Source: Candidatus Limnocylindrales bacterium
Lineage (GTDB): Bacteria; Moduliflexota; Moduliflexia; Moduliflexales; JAUQPW01
NCBI GenBank assembly: GCA_035559535.1
Contig: DATMBG010000052.1
Span: 62,001 to 85,697 of the forward strand
Direction: 5' to 3'
Length of the DNA: 23,697 nucleotides
Both the position numbers and the translations under genes were made by a program. The first letter of the stretch is position 1, and each line of letters starts with the position of its first letter. A model generated the notes under the pieces. That model worked only from the letters and a program-made list of their open reading frames with translations. It had not been told where the DNA came from and made no database searches. Of the stretch, positions 3,368-19,053 are shown piece after piece.

Positions 3368-3383
3368 TGGCATGTTGTTTGAA
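3368..3383 (+). promoter_or_regulatory. Possible sigma54-type promoter (non-canonical -12)
   Basis: TGGCATGTTGTTTGAA is GG-N10-GA. The -24 box is good, but the -12 has GA rather than GC. Confidence 0.4.
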
Positions 3384-11630: not shown

Positions 11631-11662
11631 CAGAAGGCGAGAATTCCAATTCTCGCCTTCTG
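11631..11662 (-). terminator. Intrinsic terminator of the DUF3618-like gene
   Basis: Perfect 15-bp inverted repeat CAGAAGGCGAGAATT-cc-AATTCTCGCCTTCTG, followed on the minus strand by TTGTTTG, 14 nt after the stop. Confidence 0.7.
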
Positions 11663-11676
11663 AATAGCCCGGGATT

Positions 11677-12066
11677 TTAAAATAGAGAAGCTCTGACTCT
11701 TCCTGAACCGGAGGTTACAGATCTTCCCAGTCCTTCAATAAACTCTGTGGTCTTTTTTGTAAGGAGACCGGCAAGCATAGATCCTAATATATTTGGAATT
11801 TGACTTACATCCCTCCTGGCTTCTGAAGACCTAGCTTCGGCGGCCGAAGGTGTAAAATTCCGTCCGATCCAAAACCCTATGGCCAGGGCTCCTAAAGCAA
11901 ATTCGGTTGGATATCTTTGAACCCAGGATCGCCAGTCCAACGTCTCCTTAAGCTCATCGGTAATGTTCTCGACGGTATGGGAAATATTCTCCTTCGCTTC
12001 CTCTATAGACTGTTTTAAATCCGTTTTAACTTGTTGAGAACCTATAGTATAATTTTTCTGATCCAT
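11677..12066 (-). CDS. DUF3618-like small membrane-anchored stress protein
   Basis: LKQSIEEAKENISHTVENITDELKETLDWRSWVQRYP followed by a hydrophobic ALGALAIGFWIG segment, the typical DUF3618 layout. Confidence 0.65.
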   Translation of the reverse strand: MDQKNYTIGSQQVKTDLKQSIEEAKENISHTVENITDELKETLDWRSWVQRYPTEFALGALAIGFWIGRNFTPSAAEARSSEARRDVSQIPNILGSMLAGLLTKKTTEFIEGLGRSVTSGSGRVRASLF

Positions 12067-12189
12067 TTTTTGTTTTTCTCCGTTTCTGGAGTGCCTTCTC
12101 CAAGTTCACGATAAAACCAGAAACTCCCTGGTAACAGAAGAAACACCCAGAGTGAGAGGAGATTACCTCCCTTTTAAAGATGGTAAAGG

Positions 12190-12525
12190 CTACTTGCGTC
12201 TGAATAAAGAGCCGAGAATAAAACCGGCTGCCAGGGACATAAAGAGCGCTTTATCCGGATTAGCCTGGACATAGTCCAGAGTATCTCGGTATAAGCTTTC
12301 AAGGTTCCATCTATTGATATTTACCTCGGGAAGGTTTCTTTTTACACCCTCGATCATTTCTCCTACCCTGGCCTTTCCGGCCTCATAACCTTCTTGAACC
12401 TGATCTTTCATTTTCGTTACCTGCTCTCCTACGCGCTCTTTCAAGTTTTCCATATTTCCACCGGGTTTCTCTTCTCTTGGATAATCGGGATAATTTGGAT
12501 TGTTGGGATTGTAATGGGTAGCCAT
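12190..12525 (-). CDS. ElaB/YqjD/DUF883-like tail-anchored protein
   Basis: Helical charged N-terminus and C-terminal YVQANPDKALFMSLAAGFILGSLFRRK (the YV..NP...A..GF.LG.L.RR signature). RBS AAGGAGG. Confidence 0.8.
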   Translation of the reverse strand: MATHYNPNNPNYPDYPREEKPGGNMENLKERVGEQVTKMKDQVQEGYEAGKARVGEMIEGVKRNLPEVNINRWNLESLYRDTLDYVQANPDKALFMSLAAGFILGSLFRRK

Positions 12526-12795
12526 AAAACCTCCTTTATGATATAAGTTAATTCACTTTCCTGAGTCTTTAGATTCTTCTCCTCGTGCTTCTCGGGAGAA
12601 GGGATTATAGAATTGCCTTTTCTACTCTATCAAACGCCCCTATCGGTTAAAACCATCAGAAAATTGAAAATAATTCCCTACAGGCTTGCTCTTTCTATGG
12701 AATTGACCAAACCTGACAAGCCGGATTTATAATCCATCTTCTTGAAAGTTTTTGAGTTTTTTAAGGGCCCAGCTGAGTGATCTGCCCTCTTGAAG

Positions 12796-12811
12796 TGCAT
12801 AAATCCTGCCA
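12796..12811 (-). promoter_or_regulatory. sigma54 (-24/-12) promoter facing the ElaB-like/DUF3618-like operon
   Basis: The minus strand reads TGGCAGGATTTATGCA (GG-N10-GC). Confidence 0.6.
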
Positions 12812-13049
12812 TTTCCCATCTTCCCAAAAATTACCGGACTTGGAAGAGGTTCAAATACCTGGTCATAAAAACCAAAAGTCTTAAAGGAGTCATAACGCGG
12901 CATATTCTCCCTTCAAGGGGTCAGACTCTTCCCTAGCAAGCTTGATTTGGCCTTTTATCCCTTCTACCTTCCTTATTCAGGGTTTAATTTAACCCACTAT
13001 ACTCCAACAGACCCTCTTGTAGGATTAAATATCTTTATTAGTTGTAAAA

Positions 13050-13065
13050 AGGCATGCTAAATGCA
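13050..13065 (+). promoter_or_regulatory. sigma54 (-24/-12) promoter facing the HhH genes
   Basis: AGGCATGCTAAATGCA (GG-N10-GC), about 100 nt upstream of ATG 13165. Confidence 0.6.
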
Positions 13066-13164
13066 CCTATAACACTTTAGGTAAGTAAAATATTTACTTT
13101 GGTCATAGGATAAAGGGTATTCTCTGTTTCAGGGAGGATCCTTAAAAAAACAGGAGAGGAAGAA

Positions 13165-13512
13165 ATGGAAAAGAAATCAGATAGGAACAAATCCCGGATC
13201 AATCTTAACACCGCCAGTGATGAAGAGTTAAAAAGAATCCTTAAAAGCGATCAATTGATACAAACCATTAAAGAAAAACGACCTTTTCATAACCTGGAAG
13301 ATCTTTGGGAGATTCCAGGGATCAACCGGGAACTCTTTGATGAGCTGAGAAAGATCGTCTATCTGAGTGGTGGGGAAGCAGAAGGAAAGGAAGGAATATC
13401 ATCTACCCTACCGGCTTCGGGTCCTATCGTTGATCCCGAGCTGAGTGAGGAAATGGGAACCGACCATCCGGGTAAGACCGGGAGAGATACCCAGTTCGAA
13501 TCGGAAAGATAA
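13165..13512 (+). CDS. Helix-hairpin-helix (ComEA/HHH_3-like) domain protein, no signal peptide
   Basis: RINLNTASDEEL...RPFHNLEDLWEIPGIN..LFDEL, followed by an acidic low-complexity tail. RBS AGGAGAGG. Confidence 0.8.
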   Translation: MEKKSDRNKSRINLNTASDEELKRILKSDQLIQTIKEKRPFHNLEDLWEIPGINRELFDELRKIVYLSGGEAEGKEGISSTLPASGPIVDPELSEEMGTDHPGKTGRDTQFESER

Positions 13513-13576
13513 CCTTTTTTATCCGTTATCTGCTATCTATTTTAAAGAAAATAGGGAGCGGATAACGGGTGATTCC

Positions 13577-14239
13577 ATGAATCCACCTTATTCTAAAAAG
13601 AAAGAAGCTTTGTTAGGGACAGGACCGGAAGCCGATAAACCGGATGATCAAAGGTCGGAGCACTCCGGTGAAGTGGACGATATAATTAATATTAACAGGG
13701 CCGATGATGCAGCCCTTCTCCGGGTATTTAAAGATGAGGAACTGGTCCGTGCCGTTAAATCCGGTCGTCCCTATGAGAGCCCGGAAGATCTTTACCGGAT
13801 AGAAGGTATCAATGAGGATGTTTTTGAGAGGGTCCGGGATAGAATTACCGTAGAAAACCAGGCAAAGTCCGGATTTAGAAGTGTTACGGATATACGGGAG
13901 ACCCAGGAGTTGCAGGAAGGGTCCATTCCGGGTTTTGACAGGGATAAACAGGAAGAAATCACCGGGGCTAGGGATCGACTCATAGCTCGGGGTGTCATCG
14001 ATGAGGAAGGGGAAGTCTTCCGGCAACTGGAGAATATAGAACCGGAGATACAGGAAGATCTTAAAGTGATCGAGACCCTTCCGGAACTAACTCCCGTAAG
14101 CGAAACCGAAGAGGCTCAGGAGGAAGAACTTCCAGATGGGGATGTTCAGAAGGATGAGGTAAAAACTCGAGGGTCCGAACGAAGGATAATACCAGGAAGT
14201 GAAGCTGAAACCCCAGAAGAATCGGAGAAACCCGATTAG
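13577..14239 (+). CDS. Second HhH (HHH_3-like) domain protein with long acidic, probably disordered flanks
   Basis: IININRADD..L...RPYESPEDLYRIEGINEDVFERVRDRITV. ATG 13577 is preferred over GTG 13445, which overlaps the upstream gene. Confidence 0.75.
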   Translation: MNPPYSKKKEALLGTGPEADKPDDQRSEHSGEVDDIININRADDAALLRVFKDEELVRAVKSGRPYESPEDLYRIEGINEDVFERVRDRITVENQAKSGFRSVTDIRETQELQEGSIPGFDRDKQEEITGARDRLIARGVIDEEGEVFRQLENIEPEIQEDLKVIETLPELTPVSETEEAQEEELPDGDVQKDEVKTRGSERRIIPGSEAETPEESEKPD

Positions 14240-14332
14240 TGAGGGGAATAAAAAATAAAGGCTTTAAGAGAAGAACTTTTCTGTTTGAAAAGCGTCTAAT
14301 TTTTAAAGGGGACTTTTAAAGGAGGCTTGGGT

Positions 14333-14656
14333 ATGAGAATCTTATTGGTGATTCTGATTGTTGTCCTTATTTTGGTTGCCAGCGGGATTATCTATATCCG
14401 GCAAAGTCAGGATCGCGTGACCATCACCATTGATACCAGCAAAGTTCAACAGAAAGCCGGGGAGGTTATTGAAACCGGTAAAGAAGTTGGATCTGAGGCC
14501 TTAAAGCAAACCGGGAGGGTTATGGAAAAGGTTGGGGAAAAACTGAGTGGAGGAAAAACGGAGCCAAAAAATCAAAATGAGGCTCAGGTACCTCCGGTAC
14601 CGGGTCGGGGAGAAGCTAAATCCGAAAACCGGGAAGAAGCGAAACCCCATCGCTAA
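14333..14656 (+). CDS. Small N-terminally membrane-anchored hypothetical protein
   Basis: GGAGG at 14321-14325 precedes ATG 14333. One TM helix, then VTITIDT.KV and an amphipathic helix. Confidence 0.7.
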   Translation: MRILLVILIVVLILVASGIIYIRQSQDRVTITIDTSKVQQKAGEVIETGKEVGSEALKQTGRVMEKVGEKLSGGKTEPKNQNEAQVPPVPGRGEAKSENREEAKPHR

Positions 14657-14669
14657 ATTGATAAAAATA

Positions 14670-14698
14670 GGGAGGGTTTCCAAAAGTAAAACCCTCCC
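14670..14698. terminator. Bidirectional terminator between convergent genes
   Basis: GGGAGGGTTT (14670-14679) pairs with AAACCCTCCC (14689-14698). It is flanked by an A-rich tract on the left and a T-rich tract on the right. Confidence 0.7.
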
Positions 14699-14719
14699 CT
14701 ACGTTTATCTTTCGGCTCT

Positions 14720-15610
14720 TCAATTTAGATAGTCTTCTAAACTTCGGGTTATAGCCCTTTTCTTTAACCGCTCCTTGGCCCTTTTCTCGAGTTGACGAAC
14801 TCTTTCTCTACTCAGGTTTAATTGTTTCCCTATTTCTGCCAACGTCATAGGTTTTCCCCCATTAATTCCATACCTCAGTTTTAGAATGGTCTCTTCCCTG
14901 GGATCAAGTCCACTGAGCAGTTCCCTAAGCTCCTCCATGAGAGACTCTTTAATTACCCACTGCTCCGGAGAGAGGTAGTTTTTTCCTCGGATGGTGTCCA
15001 CAAAAGTGGTTCCTTCATTATCGGAGATGGGAGTGTCCAGGGATAAAGGACCCCAGGATAATCCTAAGAGAGATTCGACTTTTTTGACCGGAATATTTAA
15101 TCTACTCGCCAAATCTTCCGGGCTGGGGGATTCGGCTATTTTTTCCTGCATGAGATCCTTATAGACTTTACCCAGTTTGATGATCATATCGGCCTGTCGC
15201 ATAGGAATCCGAATAATACTCCCTTGCTCAGCCAAGGCTTGCATGATGGCCTGTCTAACCCACCATACCCCATAGGAGATAAATTTGACTCCTTTCGAGG
15301 GGTTGAATCTTTTAGCGGCTTCGATTAAGCCCAAATTCCCCTCATTGATAAGATCAAGTAAATCCAATCCACATCCTTGATACTGCTGAGCAATATTGAC
15401 TACAAATTTTAAGTTTCCTTCTACAAGCCGATTAAAAGCTTGCTCATCACCGTTTTGGATCCCTTTCCCCAGCTCTATTTCTTCTTCTCGGGTTGTTATA
15501 GGAATGCTGCCTATCTTTCTAAAATAGGCTTGAAGAGGACTTGCTGTAGTCATTTTCTGTGAAAATTTAAGTTTAGATTTTTTTAGCTTCTTTTTGGATG
15601 GTCTTACCAT
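14720..15610 (-). CDS. Alternative sigma70-family factor (group 2, RpoS-like; regions 1.2-4, no region 1.1)
   Basis: Region 1.2 LQAYFRKIG.IP..TREEE, region 2 NLKFVV.IA..Y...DLINEGNLGLIEAA.RF and SYGVWWVRQAI, region 3 LSLDTPI, region 4 TLAEIG..LNLSRERVRQLE. 296 aa, RBS AAGGAG. Confidence 0.92.
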   Translation of the reverse strand: MVRPSKKKLKKSKLKFSQKMTTASPLQAYFRKIGSIPITTREEEIELGKGIQNGDEQAFNRLVEGNLKFVVNIAQQYQGCGLDLLDLINEGNLGLIEAAKRFNPSKGVKFISYGVWWVRQAIMQALAEQGSIIRIPMRQADMIIKLGKVYKDLMQEKIAESPSPEDLASRLNIPVKKVESLLGLSWGPLSLDTPISDNEGTTFVDTIRGKNYLSPEQWVIKESLMEELRELLSGLDPREETILKLRYGINGGKPMTLAEIGKQLNLSRERVRQLEKRAKERLKKRAITRSLEDYLN

Positions 15611-15741
15611 TTCGTTACTCCTTGACTAGATTAGAATTTTTTTTAATAGCAGTCCTTCTCTTTATTATTACCCATCAGATTGAGGAGGTTATCTTTAAAA
15701 ACAAATTTAACTTAAAGCTGTGTTCTTTAAGGATAGAAATG

Positions 15742-15757
15742 TGCATTTTTAGTGCCA
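15742..15757 (-). promoter_or_regulatory. sigma54 (-24/-12) promoter upstream of the sigma70 gene
   Basis: The minus strand reads TGGCACTAAAAATGCA (GG-N10-GC, perfect TGGCAC -24 box), about 130 nt upstream of ATG 15610. Confidence 0.7.
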
Positions 15758-16056
15758 AGGTCGGAGTCCCTATCCTGGAAGTCTTTAAACAGAACGCGTC
15801 TTTCTGGGAATCGGTTTTGGAATCTCTCCCCTAAAAGCCTTTAAATACTTCAAGTTTTAAAGCCTGGAAGAACGTAACCTTCCCTAAGAAGGACTTATTA
15901 TTCACATCTTTTCATTTTAATCAAGTCTTTTTTGAAAAAAATTAAATTTTTTTAAAAAAAATGTATAACTTCTGGTCAACCGGTTAAATTAAAAGTGTAT
16001 GTGCAGGTGTTTTAGTGCAATTGGTTGTCATAATAGTTCCTAGGAGGCGAAAATTT

Positions 16057-16938
16057 ATGATAAAAAGTATACTTATCCCCTTTGATGGCTCTGAGCATGC
16101 CAGGACGGCTCTTAGATATGGTATTCAACTGGGTCGATGGGATCGGGCCAGGATAGATGGACTGTTTGTGATCGATATTCGGGCTATCCTCCAACCTCCC
16201 ACAACCCCCTTAGCCGTTGAAGCGTTCTTACCGGATACCGGAAATGTAGAACTTAACTTCAATTTAGAACTTCAAAAAAAGCTGGCTGAAACCGGTGAAT
16301 CTATTCTTAAAGACTTTGAAGACCTCTGTGATAGAGAAGGAGTCCGGCATGGAAGAATTTTTTTAGAAACAGGTTTTATTGCACCCACCATTTGTGAAAG
16401 AGGGAAAACTGCCGATATAATTATACTCGGAAAAGAAGGGCTTTTTGAGGAGACGGGGGCTTCTGGAGAGTCTAAGGCGCAAGTTCCGGATAAACTCCTG
16501 GGTCCGGTAGTCACTGAGGTTATGAGGACGGCTATCCGACCGGTCCTGGTGGTCCCCTGCGAATATAGGGAAATAAAACGTATCCTGATCGCCTATGATG
16601 GCCATGAGGCTGCAAGTCGAGTTCTCCAAATAGCAGCCTACCTGGGGGCCGTCGGGGAGTTTGATCTGAAAATTCTGGTGGTCACAGATTCCCCCTCTGA
16701 AGGGAGAAAGATCGGTCAACAGGCCGAGGACTACCTCCAGGCTTATGAACTCCAACCTCACCTTATCATGGAGACCGGAAATCCCGTTGAGAAAATATTA
16801 GCAGTTGCCAGACAAGAGGCTATCGATCTCATCGCCATGGGCGCTTTTGGGAAAAGTAAAATACGGGAATTGTTTTTGGGAAGTACCACCGAAGCGGTAG
16901 TCAAAGAAGCGGATTGTCCCGTGCTTTTGCATCAATAG
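16057..16938 (+). CDS. Tandem-domain universal stress protein (USP)
   Basis: IKSILIPFDGSE, ADIIILGKEG, LLGPV...RPVLVV, second domain RILIAYDG, DLIAMGAFG.SKIRELFLGSTT...CPVL. AGGAGG at 16042-16047 favours ATG 16057. Confidence 0.92.
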   Translation: MIKSILIPFDGSEHARTALRYGIQLGRWDRARIDGLFVIDIRAILQPPTTPLAVEAFLPDTGNVELNFNLELQKKLAETGESILKDFEDLCDREGVRHGRIFLETGFIAPTICERGKTADIIILGKEGLFEETGASGESKAQVPDKLLGPVVTEVMRTAIRPVLVVPCEYREIKRILIAYDGHEAASRVLQIAAYLGAVGEFDLKILVVTDSPSEGRKIGQQAEDYLQAYELQPHLIMETGNPVEKILAVARQEAIDLIAMGAFGKSKIRELFLGSTTEAVVKEADCPVLLHQ

Positions 16939-17018
16939 GAAAAAGGAAGGGTCATTTTTAACCCCCCCCCTTCTAAGCAAAGCTTCAAAAAGGAAGGAGC
17001 CTTTTATGGAATCTATAG

Positions 17019-17429
17019 CCAAAATGGGGAGAATATCCGGCAGCCTCCATTCTTAAAGTCGTGGAGAGGAAAAAAGTCGATGAAATAGATGATCGGACCC
17101 TTATTTTGGCGGATATCGCGGAGAAAGCCAGGCGTCAGGTCTATGTCCGGGTGCGGGAAATCTTGATAAGTAATAAAATGGAAGCAGAAAAAGCCGATCA
17201 ATTGGCCCAGATTCTAACGGAAGGGCGCTGGACCCATGATTACCCCATCAGTTATGAGGAAGCCGTAGAATTAGGATTACCCGTGCGGGACTCTTTACCC
17301 GAAGAGGTATTGATCCTTATGAGTTTATACCCTCAACCGCCGCAACGCCGTCCCTCTGTTCAATATATTCCTGTTCCTTATAAGAAAGAGGGAGAAGAAA
17401 AAAGAACCCGGTCTAAAATTTTGGAATAA
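17019..17429 (+). pseudogene. N-terminally truncated ClpP-class 'SDH_sah' (DUF114) serine protease fragment
   Basis: The frame is open only from 17019 (after TAG 17016-17018) and reads GEYPAASILKVVE..EIDD.TLI.ADIAEKA...GRWTHDYPI...LYPQP..RRPSVQYIP. The N-terminal half containing the catalytic Ser is absent. Confidence 0.65.
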
Positions 17430-17462
17430 CCGGGGGAAATTCTCTTAAGGCTCTTTCTCCTG

Positions 17463-17605
17463 ACTCCGAGGTTTTCAAAACCCCGGAGTTTTCCTCCCTA
17501 AAGTTCTGAAAATCCCGAGATCTCCCATATTTGGGGATTTTGGAATCGTTGCCAACTCTTAGGTTGGGCTTAAACCTCCTGAGGTTTTAAATACCTCAGA
17601 GATCT
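17463..17605. repeat. Cluster of about 3 degenerate copies of a ~30-bp palindrome (CTCCGAGGTTTT-n-AAAACCTCGGAG type)
   Basis: ACTCCGAGGTTTTCAAAACCCCGGAGT (17463-17489), a degenerate copy at about 17494-17523, and AAACCTCCTGAGGTTTTAAATACCTCAGAGATCT (17572-17605). Confidence 0.6.
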
Positions 17606-17822
17606 ATCCGGTTCTCCATCAAGGCTTGAATTCTCACCCCTCTTATAGAGGGGTAGAAATGTACCTGAATCCCGGTTTGTGGACTCCGGGTTCTCTTCCG
17701 GGGATCCGGGTGTTTCTCATCCTCCCTTTCTGAGATCTCCTGGTTCTGTAAGCACTGCATGGAGGGCAAAAGCCCGGAGAGAGGACTCTCCTTCCTCCCT
17801 TGCCCGGGAAAGAAAAGATCCC

Positions 17823-17838
17823 TGGTACCAGAATTGCA
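17823..17838 (+). promoter_or_regulatory. sigma54 (-24/-12) promoter facing the 17948 gene (and possibly the BON gene)
   Basis: TGGTACCAGAATTGCA (GG-N10-GC, canonical TTGCA -12 box). Confidence 0.65.
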
Positions 17839-17947
17839 AGTTTACTTTTTTAGAGCTATTTAAGCTAAACAAAACTAAAAATAAGAATATATTGGAAAAG
17901 TTTACAAACCTTGTTTGAATTAACTATAAAGAGTGGAGGTATTTTCT

Positions 17948-18355
17948 ATGCCGGTAGGTGCATGGAGTCCAGAACGAGAGCAAGAATACGAAAAGCTCAA
18001 GGAGGAGTTTAAAAAGGAAGGAAGATATAAGGGAAGAGAAGAAGAAGTAGCTGCACGCATTGTAAATAAACAGCGCCGGGAATTCAAAGAGACTAAAGAG
18101 GCCAGCGAAGAAGATAAAAATGACCAATTAGATCAGGAACTGCCCATTGAAAATTACGATCGGTTGACCGTTCAGGAGTTAACCAGGAAGTTGGGATCTC
18201 TTTCAGAAAAAGAGCTTCAAGAAATTGAAGAGTATGAAAAGAAGCACAAAAACCGAAAAACCGCTTTAGAAGCCATGGAAAGACAAAGGAAGAAACTCCA
18301 GGACGGGAAAGAAAAAGCAAAGACGAAAGAGACCAGGGGTTATTGGGATCTCTAG
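17948..18355 (+). CDS. Small highly charged two-module stress-associated protein
   Basis: GGAGG at 17935-17939 precedes ATG 17948. N-module WSPEREQEYEKLK...G..EEVAARIVNKQR; C-module LPIENYDRLTVQEL...L..IEEYEKKHKNRKT. Confidence 0.75.
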   Translation: MPVGAWSPEREQEYEKLKEEFKKEGRYKGREEEVAARIVNKQRREFKETKEASEEDKNDQLDQELPIENYDRLTVQELTRKLGSLSEKELQEIEEYEKKHKNRKTALEAMERQRKKLQDGKEKAKTKETRGYWDL

Positions 18356-18468
18356 GGTGATCCAGGGGCTATTATCCTTGATTTCTCCTACACGGTAAAG
18401 GATAAAAGGCTCATAATCCTCATAATCCTATGGAAAAAGGGAAAATTCAGATTCATCGGGAGGAAGTT

Positions 18469-19053
18469 ATGAAATTACTTCTGGTTTTAGGGAAAGGATT
18501 CCTATCTGTATTTTTGGTTTTTATGCTGATTTCTTACCTGGTGGGGGGCAGTGGGGCCGAAGCCCGGGAACCGGCTAAGGATCCCGATCCTGCTCAAACG
18601 AAAACCCGCCCCGACTGGTGGTTGACTTTTAAAACTAAAATGGCCCTTCTGGCCAGTCCGGAGGTGAGCGCTTTTGATATTGATGTAGATACCAAAGATG
18701 GGGTCATTTACTTAAAAGGGACGGTTTCTTCAGAAAATGAAAAACAGCGTGCCGAACAAGTAGCCCAGGGAATAGAAGGAAAACGGGGGGTAGTAAATAA
18801 TCTAGTCGTTTCCGATAAGGCAAGACCGGAATATCTTTCCGACAAAGATGAAAATATTCGGGCTGCCGTCGAAAAAAATCTGGCCAGTGATCCGAACTTT
18901 AAGAATGTCCAGGTAGACGTCAAGGATGGAATTGTGACCTTAACCGGATCGGTGGAAACCTATTCTTTAAGTGCAGAAGCTGCCAGACTGGCCCGAGTTA
19001 AAGGTGTAAAAGCCATTCAAAATGAGTTGATCGTAGAGAAGGAACCTTCCTGA
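18469..19053 (+). CDS. Dual BON-domain (OsmY-like) periplasmic protein
   Basis: Signal peptide, BON1 (DWWLTFKTKMALL...IDVDTKDGVIYLKGTV...VVNNL) and BON2 (DENIRAAVE...VDVKDGIVTLTGSV...GVKAIQNEL). GGAGG at about 18459-18463 favours ATG 18469. Confidence 0.9.
   Translation: MKLLLVLGKGFLSVFLVFMLISYLVGGSGAEAREPAKDPDPAQTKTRPDWWLTFKTKMALLASPEVSAFDIDVDTKDGVIYLKGTVSSENEKQRAEQVAQGIEGKRGVVNNLVVSDKARPEYLSDKDENIRAAVEKNLASDPNFKNVQVDVKDGIVTLTGSVETYSLSAEAARLARVKGVKAIQNELIVEKEPS

Follow-up and report, generated by a model that had tools for sequence, protein, structure and literature searches.

The region between 11.6 and 19.1 kb of a 23,697-nucleotide stretch of contig DATMBG010000052.1 (positions 62,001 to 85,697 of the forward strand; the whole stretch is hereafter the window), from the assembly GCA_035559535.1 of a Candidatus Limnocylindrales bacterium (source genome G000), contains five transcription units. 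Four of them are preceded by motifs of the sigma-54 type and are named after these (the m1, m2, m3 and m4 units), and the fifth carries a universal stress protein (Usp) gene and a protease fragment. On the evidence of the sequence, the four motifs are probably, with a likelihood of about 0.7, working sigma-54 promoters of a stress island that forms a cascade from sigma-54 to a group-2 sigma factor. The promoters and genes concerned are the following, in window coordinates.

11677..12066, minus strand: gene of a 129-aa protein (p129), no Pfam family; a 64% identical paralogue lies beside the p111 paralogue on contig C6
12190..12525, minus strand: ElaB/YqjD-like gene, 111 aa (p111), with a C-terminal membrane anchor and sub-threshold model matches; paralogue on C6
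12604..12633, minus strand: sigma-70-type match TTGATA-18-TATAAT, 11/12 consensus bases, between m1 and the ElaB-like gene
12796..12811, minus strand: m1, sigma-54-type promoter TGGCAGGATTTATGCA, heading the ElaB-like and 129-aa genes; predicted start near 12785
13050..13065, plus strand: m2, weaker sigma-54-type promoter AGGCATGCTAAATGCA, heading two helix-hairpin-helix (HhH) genes and a 109-aa gene
13165..13512, plus strand: ComEA-like HhH gene, 115 aa; Pfam HHH_3 E 1.2e-8, NCBIfam ComEA HhH repeat E 4e-7, the latter below cut-off
13577..14239, plus strand: HhH gene, 220 aa, acidic tail; Pfam HHH_3 E 1.4e-4, below cut-off
14327..14656, plus strand: 109-aa gene (p109) with an N-terminal membrane helix, no Pfam family
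14720..15610, minus strand: sigma-70-family sigma gene, group 2 (RpoD/RpoS-like), 296 aa; Pfam regions 1.2, 2, 3 and 4
15742..15757, minus strand: m3, sigma-54-type promoter TGGCACTAAAAATGCA, 131 nt upstream of the sigma gene
16057..16938, plus strand: tandem Usp gene, Pfam Usp E 1.2e-34 in two stretches
17061..17429, plus strand: 122-aa frame matching an SDH-type ClpP-like protease over its C-terminal third only; Pfam SDH_protease, E 2e-38 over positions 171-284 of 286
17823..17838, plus strand: m4, sigma-54-type promoter TGGTACCAGAATTGCA, heading a 135-aa gene and a BON gene
17948..18355, plus strand: gene of a highly charged 135-aa protein, no Pfam family, absent from the sister species
18430..19053, plus strand: OsmY-like gene, 207 aa, two BON domains (Pfam BON E 1e-33, two stretches)

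When the sequence was re-read, the four GG-N10-GC motifs of the initial annotation were found at the same coordinates and on the same strands, all intergenic and each facing the adjacent gene, at 271 (m1), 99 (m2), 131 (m3) and 109 nt (m4) from the start codon. With a first, approximate weight matrix they score 13.9, 11.25, 14.21 and 14.03, respectively, and are four of the five top sites among the 14 in the window that score at least 8; the other one, at 3368-3383 with a score of 11.65, has neither the –12 GC nor a gene within 800 nt. Their excess over shuffled intergenic DNA, a check suggested in the initial annotation, is pronounced: the 2425 nt of island intergenic DNA hold four sites of at least 11.2, where 2000 dinucleotide shuffles have 0.0565 on average and at most 2, and three of at least 13.9, against a shuffle average of 0.0065. 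At the intergenic rate of the rest of the genome, real promoters included, 0.53 and 0.20 sites, respectively, would be expected. The island ties as the densest cluster of the genome, with 4 sites in 7.5 kb, a number that no 7.5-kb stretch exceeds.

As to the matrix itself, its matches are equally dense in coding and intergenic DNA at scores below about 10, and at scores of at least 14 there are 64 matches in 0.79 Mb of intergenic versus 46 in 4.82 Mb of coding DNA (40.6 versus 4.8 per Mb-strand). A second matrix was retrained on the 84 best non-island sites of the same genome, which give the local consensus TGGCAT-N5-TTGCT. The genes that follow these 84 sites include P-II, the urease gamma subunit, amino-acid and peptide binding proteins, pilin, PilM/N, exosortase, proline dehydrogenase and a bacterial enhancer-binding protein (bEBP); classical sigma-54 targets are among them and, as judged from this gene set and from the intergenic excess of its matches, the first matrix picks out real promoters in this genome. 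The ATGCA form of the –12 box is common to three of the island motifs, as had been pointed out, and A at –15 is found in only 10% of the 84 other sites.

The machinery needed for such promoters is encoded in the genome. There is one complete rpoN gene (503 aa; activator-interacting domain, AID, 62 bits; core-binding domain, CBD, 208 bits; DNA-binding domain, DBD, 216 bits), rpoN is present in 9/9 genomes of the order, and 28 of the 36 Sigma54_activat matches, scoring at least 212 bits, correspond to bEBPs, of which the two viewed in full have the architectures REC-AAA-HTH_8 and REC-PAS-AAA-HTH_8.

Conservation was assessed mainly against G001, the sole same-genus comparison genome (about 90% identical in DNA), and beyond it against 7 sister-family genomes of the same order, 9 order genomes in total. 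All four motifs are kept upstream of the orthologues in G001, with 61/64 bases identical against 69.3% of the 1554 other intergenic columns (naive binomial 2.6e-7), and the three changed bases are in the spacer or at –11. Motif m1, inside the fully conserved block 12775-12800, and m2, in a region 79% identical, have one spacer change each; m3 is unchanged inside a perfect 46-nt block (15719-15764); m4, in a region 79% identical, differs at the –11 base alone (TTGCG), with a perfect block at 17809-17837. The arrangement is also found beyond the island. The p111/p129 operon and a paralogous pair on C6 are 49-64% identical in protein and have unrelated flanks, and in both species the two carry TGGCAnnATTTATGCAC; the C6 operon and its G001 counterpart have TGGCAAAATTTATGCAC, and the shared form is TGGCAnnATT[T/C]ATGCAC. 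A further m1-like site on C6 (52212-52227) was discounted, with no plausible gene within 280 nt downstream. The C6 and C33 paralogues of the 109-aa gene and its orthologue on L228, a metagenome contig from a relative more distant than G001, each have a sigma-54 site of their own (scores 12.2, 13.1 and 14.9). Since paralogues of island genes elsewhere are also found behind sigma-54 sites, placing stress genes on sigma-54 would be a genome-wide habit of this organism. That the wiring is lineage-specific, as the initial annotation had it, holds among the genomes sampled: rpoN is in all nine, but the searches of the 7 sister-family genomes yielded neither p111 nor BON, and at most 2 copies of the activator site of the second regulon described below.

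The gene behind m3 gives the island its particular interest. The NCBIfam models that fit its product best are those of RpoD and RpoS, none of which reaches its cut-off (RpoS 230 bits against 378.7), and the RpoD models score higher. It has about seven to nine further group-2-like paralogues in the genome, 53-60% identical (contigs C33, C39, C12 twice, C10, C25 and C58); among 10 sigma-70-family paralogues checked, the island sigma is the only one with a site of at least 12 within 400 nt upstream. For the paralogues on C33 and C25, the nearest such site on the same strand is 1.5-2.1 kb upstream, and they may be members of operons headed by it. The sigma-paralogue set is similar in the sister species, and matches to the island sigma number 11-12, against 2-6 in the sister-family genomes. 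On L228 the sigma protein is 86% identical, its coding DNA about 77% identical and the intergenic DNA unalignable to the window; there, TGGCATCAGAAATGCAC is separated by 57 nt from the M50/CBS peptidase gene that it precedes, and the sigma gene comes 120 nt further on the same strand.

A scan of more distant loci found a site of at least 12 within 500 nt upstream at 2/54 sigma homologues, both in spirochaete records and 25-55 nt ahead of the start codon, which serve as a positive control for the cascade and agree with the wiring published for Borrelia (PMC3037356). Among the 54 loci scanned, this suggests that a sigma-54 site before a sigma gene is uncommon outside spirochaetes. In the sister family the context differs from that of the island, the closest sigma homologue being directly downstream of a MerR/HspR-like regulator gene, as follows.

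About 1100-1460, in sigma-oriented coordinates: MerR/HspR-like gene upstream of the sigma homologue, at loci L097, L101, L096, L100, L098 and L099

Two side observations concern the sigma genes. At C25:26933-30232 a DUF1328 gene, three small ORFs (open reading frames) and a further sigma paralogue, all on the same strand, come after a GGGTT-N6-AACCC dyad and the sigma-54 site TGGCATGGTAAATGCT, and this may be a second operon with a link from sigma-54 to a sigma factor. At L228:2652-3818 (plus strand) the gene between the sigma-54 promoter and the sigma gene encodes an M50 site-2-type peptidase with CBS domains.

In the mechanism proposed here, the sigma-54 holoenzyme would be bound at the four promoters in a closed, silent complex and would fire when a signal-activated enhancer-binding ATPase remodels it. 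Promoter m1 would drive the ElaB-like membrane-anchored protein and its 129-aa partner, m2 the two HhH proteins and the small membrane protein, m3 the group-2 (RpoD/RpoS-like) sigma factor, and m4 the charged 135-aa protein together with the OsmY-like double-BON protein. Since one of these targets is itself a sigma factor, a two-tier cascade is predicted, with sigma-54 acting before the group-2 sigma, and the tandem Usp gene, which is without a sigma-54 site, would be a candidate target of the second tier. The firing of the promoters, the activator and signal that control them and the second tier are what we infer from this arrangement.

Several observations weigh against this reading. The first matrix, with its approximate frequencies, is a lead rather than a reference, and the gene calls are crude, namely the longest ORFs. 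With the self-trained matrix m1, m4 and m3 fall in the low tail (8th, 12th and 14th percentile, respectively), and the ATGCA form deviates from the local TTGCT consensus; m2 scores 8.38, below all 84 training sites, a level at which 301 intergenic and 931 coding matches are found, intergenic DNA being only about twofold richer. Motif conservation is testable in two close relatives only, p111 and BON are the two island genes that were searched for and not found in the sister family, and the sigma-54-like matches near the sister-family sigma homologues, seemingly conserved, were rejected as lying within the MerR/HspR-like coding gene. There is no bEBP gene within the window, and no exact 5-nt inverted repeat is common to the four island promoters and the C6 paralogue promoter in the 290 nt upstream. 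The Usp gene, as a stress gene the most typical one in the island, lacks a plus-strand sigma-54 site of at least 8 in 15611-16056, and m1 is 271 nt from its gene, with a near-consensus sigma-70-type match closer to it in this genome.

Some of these observations would fit a different role of the motifs, in which they bind the sigma-54 holoenzyme as auxiliary, poised or repressive sites and the main transcription starts from sigma-70 or group-2 promoters. The TTGATA-18-TATAAT match (11/12) between m1 and the ElaB-like gene, a usp gene that works without any sigma-54 site, the weakness of the island motifs relative to the other sigma-54 sites of the genome, and the many sites at which E. coli sigma-54 is reported to be bound but transcriptionally inactive (PMC4591121) all point in this direction. 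The sigma-70-type match, however, is not conserved, as the segment with its –35 hexamer is deleted in G001 while m1 and 26 nt downstream of it stay, and all four sigma-54-type sites face a gene at typical promoter distances. As to sigma-70-type promoters more generally, those that the initial annotation had placed outside the island, at 930, 4059 and about 22014, are present as consensus matches, but such matches are no commoner than in shuffles, and the same is true within the island (12 versus 10.7). A mainly auxiliary role of the four sites is thus considered unlikely. Also very improbable is that the 16-mers belong to a different DNA-binding protein that reads the near-palindrome GCA-N7-TGC and are merely sigma-54-like: three sites have an unusual extended ATGCAC with few other intergenic occurrences, and the sigma-54 consensus is itself partly palindromic, but all four sites are in promoter strand orientation, a constraint not expected of a symmetric operator, an intergenic enrichment of GGYA-N6-ATGCA is seen at the sigma-54 spacing only (17 copies versus 2-7 at five other spacings), and the changes between species are at positions degenerate in the sigma-54 consensus. 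Chance matches, conserved merely through the closeness of the two genomes compared, are hardly credible: the closest relative is indeed about 90% identical in DNA and m2 by itself is not convincing, but none of the 2000 shuffles reached the observed site count, the identity of the motifs (61/64) is to be set against the 69.3% of the surrounding intergenic DNA, and the promoter has persisted both between old paralogues and in L228, whose flanks do not align. Functional sigma-54 promoters are therefore preferred as the explanation of the four motifs.

General stress responses are usually credited to sigma factors of the sigma-70 family, such as RpoS, SigB and EcfG, and the RpoS general stress regulon of enterobacteria includes osmY, elaB, yqjD and usp genes. 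Here the same kinds of stress effectors, plus a sigma factor, appear behind putative sigma-54 promoters. The likeness to the enterobacterial regulon lies in the OsmY-like double-BON protein, the ElaB/YqjD-like tail-anchored protein and the Usp of the island and, elsewhere in the genome, in DUF1328 and Transgly_assoc proteins. By contrast, the island promoters are of the ATPase-dependent sigma-54 type and not of the sigma-70/sigma-S type, and the ElaB and OsmY matches are below the equivalog cut-offs. Because sigma-54 promoters are silent until an ATPase activator fires, such wiring would turn the stress response on and off tightly, under the control of a signal.

That stress genes can be under sigma-54 is in itself not new. 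Phage-shock, envelope and general stress sigma-54 regulons are listed for Desulfovibrio vulgaris (PMC4641369), and a position-specific scoring matrix survey reports that in Planctomycetia the predicted sigma-54 targets are enriched in UspA-domain genes (PMC12316311). The island resembles these cases in having sigma-54, and presumably a bEBP, over stress genes; it differs in that the corresponding passages name no sigma factor, no BON/OsmY-like or ElaB-like targets and no four-promoter island (PMC4641369, PMC12316311). A two-step sigma switch is known so far mainly from Borrelia, the Lyme disease bacterium. In the Rrp2-RpoN-RpoS pathway of Borrelia burgdorferi, a sigma-54 –24/–12 promoter is located directly ahead of the RpoS gene (PMC3037356, PMC2940757), just as m3, known here from sequence, precedes a sigma-70-family sigma gene. 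Unlike Borrelia, the organism of the island is free-living, uncultured and unrelated, and has 28 bEBPs in place of a single dedicated activator; its island sigma is one of about ten paralogues, for which the NCBIfam scores do not establish orthology to RpoS; and sigma-54 would also drive stress effectors directly, and not solely via the second sigma. If the cascade is real, it would be a second, independent one from sigma-54 to a sigma factor besides that of Borrelia, in a free-living organism, and several uncharacterised small proteins would be tied to a defined stress programme. As the organism is uncultured, the present value of the analysis is in testable predictions of promoters and activator sites.

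The initial annotation went further and proposed a general stress or dormancy regulon driven by sigma-54 and a bEBP, with the search for a shared upstream activating sequence (UAS) as one of its checks. The sigma-54 promoters of this proposal are largely supported, but the single regulon is not borne out, as neither the inverted-repeat nor the shared 8-mer searches found a UAS common to the four promoters. The dyad search covered exact 5-nt inverted repeats with spacers of 0-12 nt, over 290 nt ahead of the C6 paralogue promoter and of each of the four in the island, and among the conserved footprints the only shared 8-mers were those of one element, TTTAATTTAACC, common to the m1/m2 and m3 regions, with none in all four. 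The candidate activator sites are the following.

12980..12995, no strand: dyad GGGTTTAATTTAACCC, between the divergent m1 and m2; perfect in G001, in block 12977-13001
15866..15883, no strand: dyad GGAAG-N8-CTTCC, 109-126 nt upstream of m3
15982..15993, reverse strand: second copy, the 12-mer TTTAATTTAACC, upstream of both m3 and usp, at 225 and 64 nt, respectively

The first island copy of the 12-mer comes from the 12980-12995 dyad; there are 4 copies in the genome, and only 2 are intergenic, both of them in the island and in blocks that G001 shares without a change. Of the 9 intergenic GGGTT-N6-AACCC copies genome-wide, 5 are within 350 nt of a sigma-54 site, against 0-1 such copies when GGGTT and AACCC are spaced by N3-N5 or N7-N9. 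In G001 both arms of GGAAG-N8-CTTCC are kept and 4 of the 8 spacer bases differ. As to the activator, the C6 paralogue operon is back to back with a sigma-54-driven operon of a histidine kinase and a REC-PAS-AAA-HTH_8 activator, and this protein, from its adjacency only, may be a reasonable first candidate. The C6 copy of GGGTT-N6-AACCC keeps its place beside the histidine-kinase/bEBP operon, and in G001 its distance from the p111-paralogue promoter changes from 400 to 637 nt; given this shift, its position is no evidence that it serves the p111-paralogue promoter.

Elsewhere in the genome, a second class of sigma-54 promoter, TGGCATAnnnATTGC[GC], is accompanied by a site pair, TGTCTTAATTTCTGACA and TGTAAGATTTTAAGACA, about 58 nt apart and 110-250 nt upstream, which is found at 15 or more promoters of the class. 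The pairs are located as follows.

C37:20608-20682, C37:2775-2849, C41:11345-11419, C46:28173-28247, C33:8854-8925 and about ten more places in G000: site pairs of the second regulon

The first site, TGTCTTAATTTCTGACA, is within 350 nt of a sigma-54 site in 26 of its 27 intergenic matches. The genes concerned comprise three tandem Usp, two DUF2267, Hsp20, Hsp70, hemerythrins, a paralogue of the 109-aa gene and an HhH paralogue, which is 50% identical to the 220-aa island protein and lies at C37:3033, behind a sigma-54 site and the UAS of this regulon; it also takes in an operon that combines a PAS kinase with an NtrC-type activator and a hemerythrin. This gene content, as we take it, resembles a dormancy (DosR-like) regulon. 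The site of the second regulon occurs 17 times in this genome, 15 times in G001 and 0-2 times in the seven sister-family genomes, and the window has none. Since this UAS is absent from the island, stress genes would be on sigma-54 in at least two separate modules; judged by its sites, the island is not part of the best-defined sigma-54 stress regulon, and its predicted promoters make it one of several sigma-54-wired stress clusters in the genus. It is conceivable, although put forward tentatively and at somewhat less than even odds, that the stress or dormancy response of this lineage moved to sigma-54 in two layers and that the layer of the island is an independent invention of a cascade from sigma-54 to an RpoS-like factor. 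In such a scheme, a first layer, the regulon of at least 15 promoters with its own activator sites, would drive the Usp, Hsp20, Hsp70, DUF2267 and hemerythrin genes, and a second, the island, would drive envelope and DNA-protection proteins together with the group-2 sigma factor.

Regarding the products of the individual units, the layout of the 111-aa protein fits the ElaB/YqjD identity given to it in the initial annotation, but all its model matches are below threshold: NCBIfam ElaB E 0.078 (13.5 bits against a cut-off of 139, model positions 15-100 of 101), DUF883_C E 0.16 (12.1 bits against a cut-off of 27) and YtxH E 0.1. The 129-aa gene is probably co-transcribed with it; the Atlas neighbours of its product are unnamed clusters, one of them with DUF3618 in 13% of the members. 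The first approximately 60 nt after m1 (12738-12800), the start of a long 5' leader, are nearly invariant and may represent a small RNA or an element of the leader, and the next approximately 95 nt are deleted in G001. A 58-aa ORF overlapping m1 (12727-12903) was rejected as a gene, as the alignment with G001 has frame-breaking gaps. In the m4 unit, the BON protein, in which an N-terminal signal or anchor is followed by two BON domains, is not an OsmY equivalog (NCBIfam OsmY 73 bits against a cut-off of 174), and the 135-aa protein has a weak match to an NCBIfam lipid-droplet protein (28 bits, the cut-off being 110) and no more than leads at 0.87 in the Atlas. Positions 17933-18382, with the 135-aa gene, have no counterpart in the alignment with G001, which points to a gain or loss of about 450 bp inside the operon and places m4 of the sister species directly ahead of the BON gene. 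The remaining features of the island are these.

11631..11662, minus strand: terminator-like hairpin closing the m1 operon, 14-pair stem followed by a T-rich tail
14669..14699, minus strand: terminator-like hairpin between the convergent m2 operon and sigma gene, 12-pair stem followed by a T-rich tail
15894..16003, no strand: A/T-rich block between m3 and usp, with perfect blocks 15894-15953 and 15955-16003 against G001

The A/T-rich block shows a single difference between the two species, so that its conservation exceeds that of the genes on either side; no second copy of it occurs in the genome, it matches nothing in Rfam, and no Rfam family reaches its gathering score anywhere in the window. 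Three similar short SDH-protease paralogues are present in the genome, so that the 122-aa frame may be a free-standing C-terminal domain and not a remnant. On L228 a TreT-type trehalose synthase gene comes after usp. The stretch 17440-17710, from the protease fragment towards m4, has a run of short G+C-rich hairpins, several of which are kept in the sister species, e.g., CTGAGGTTTTAAATACCTCAG at 17579-17599.

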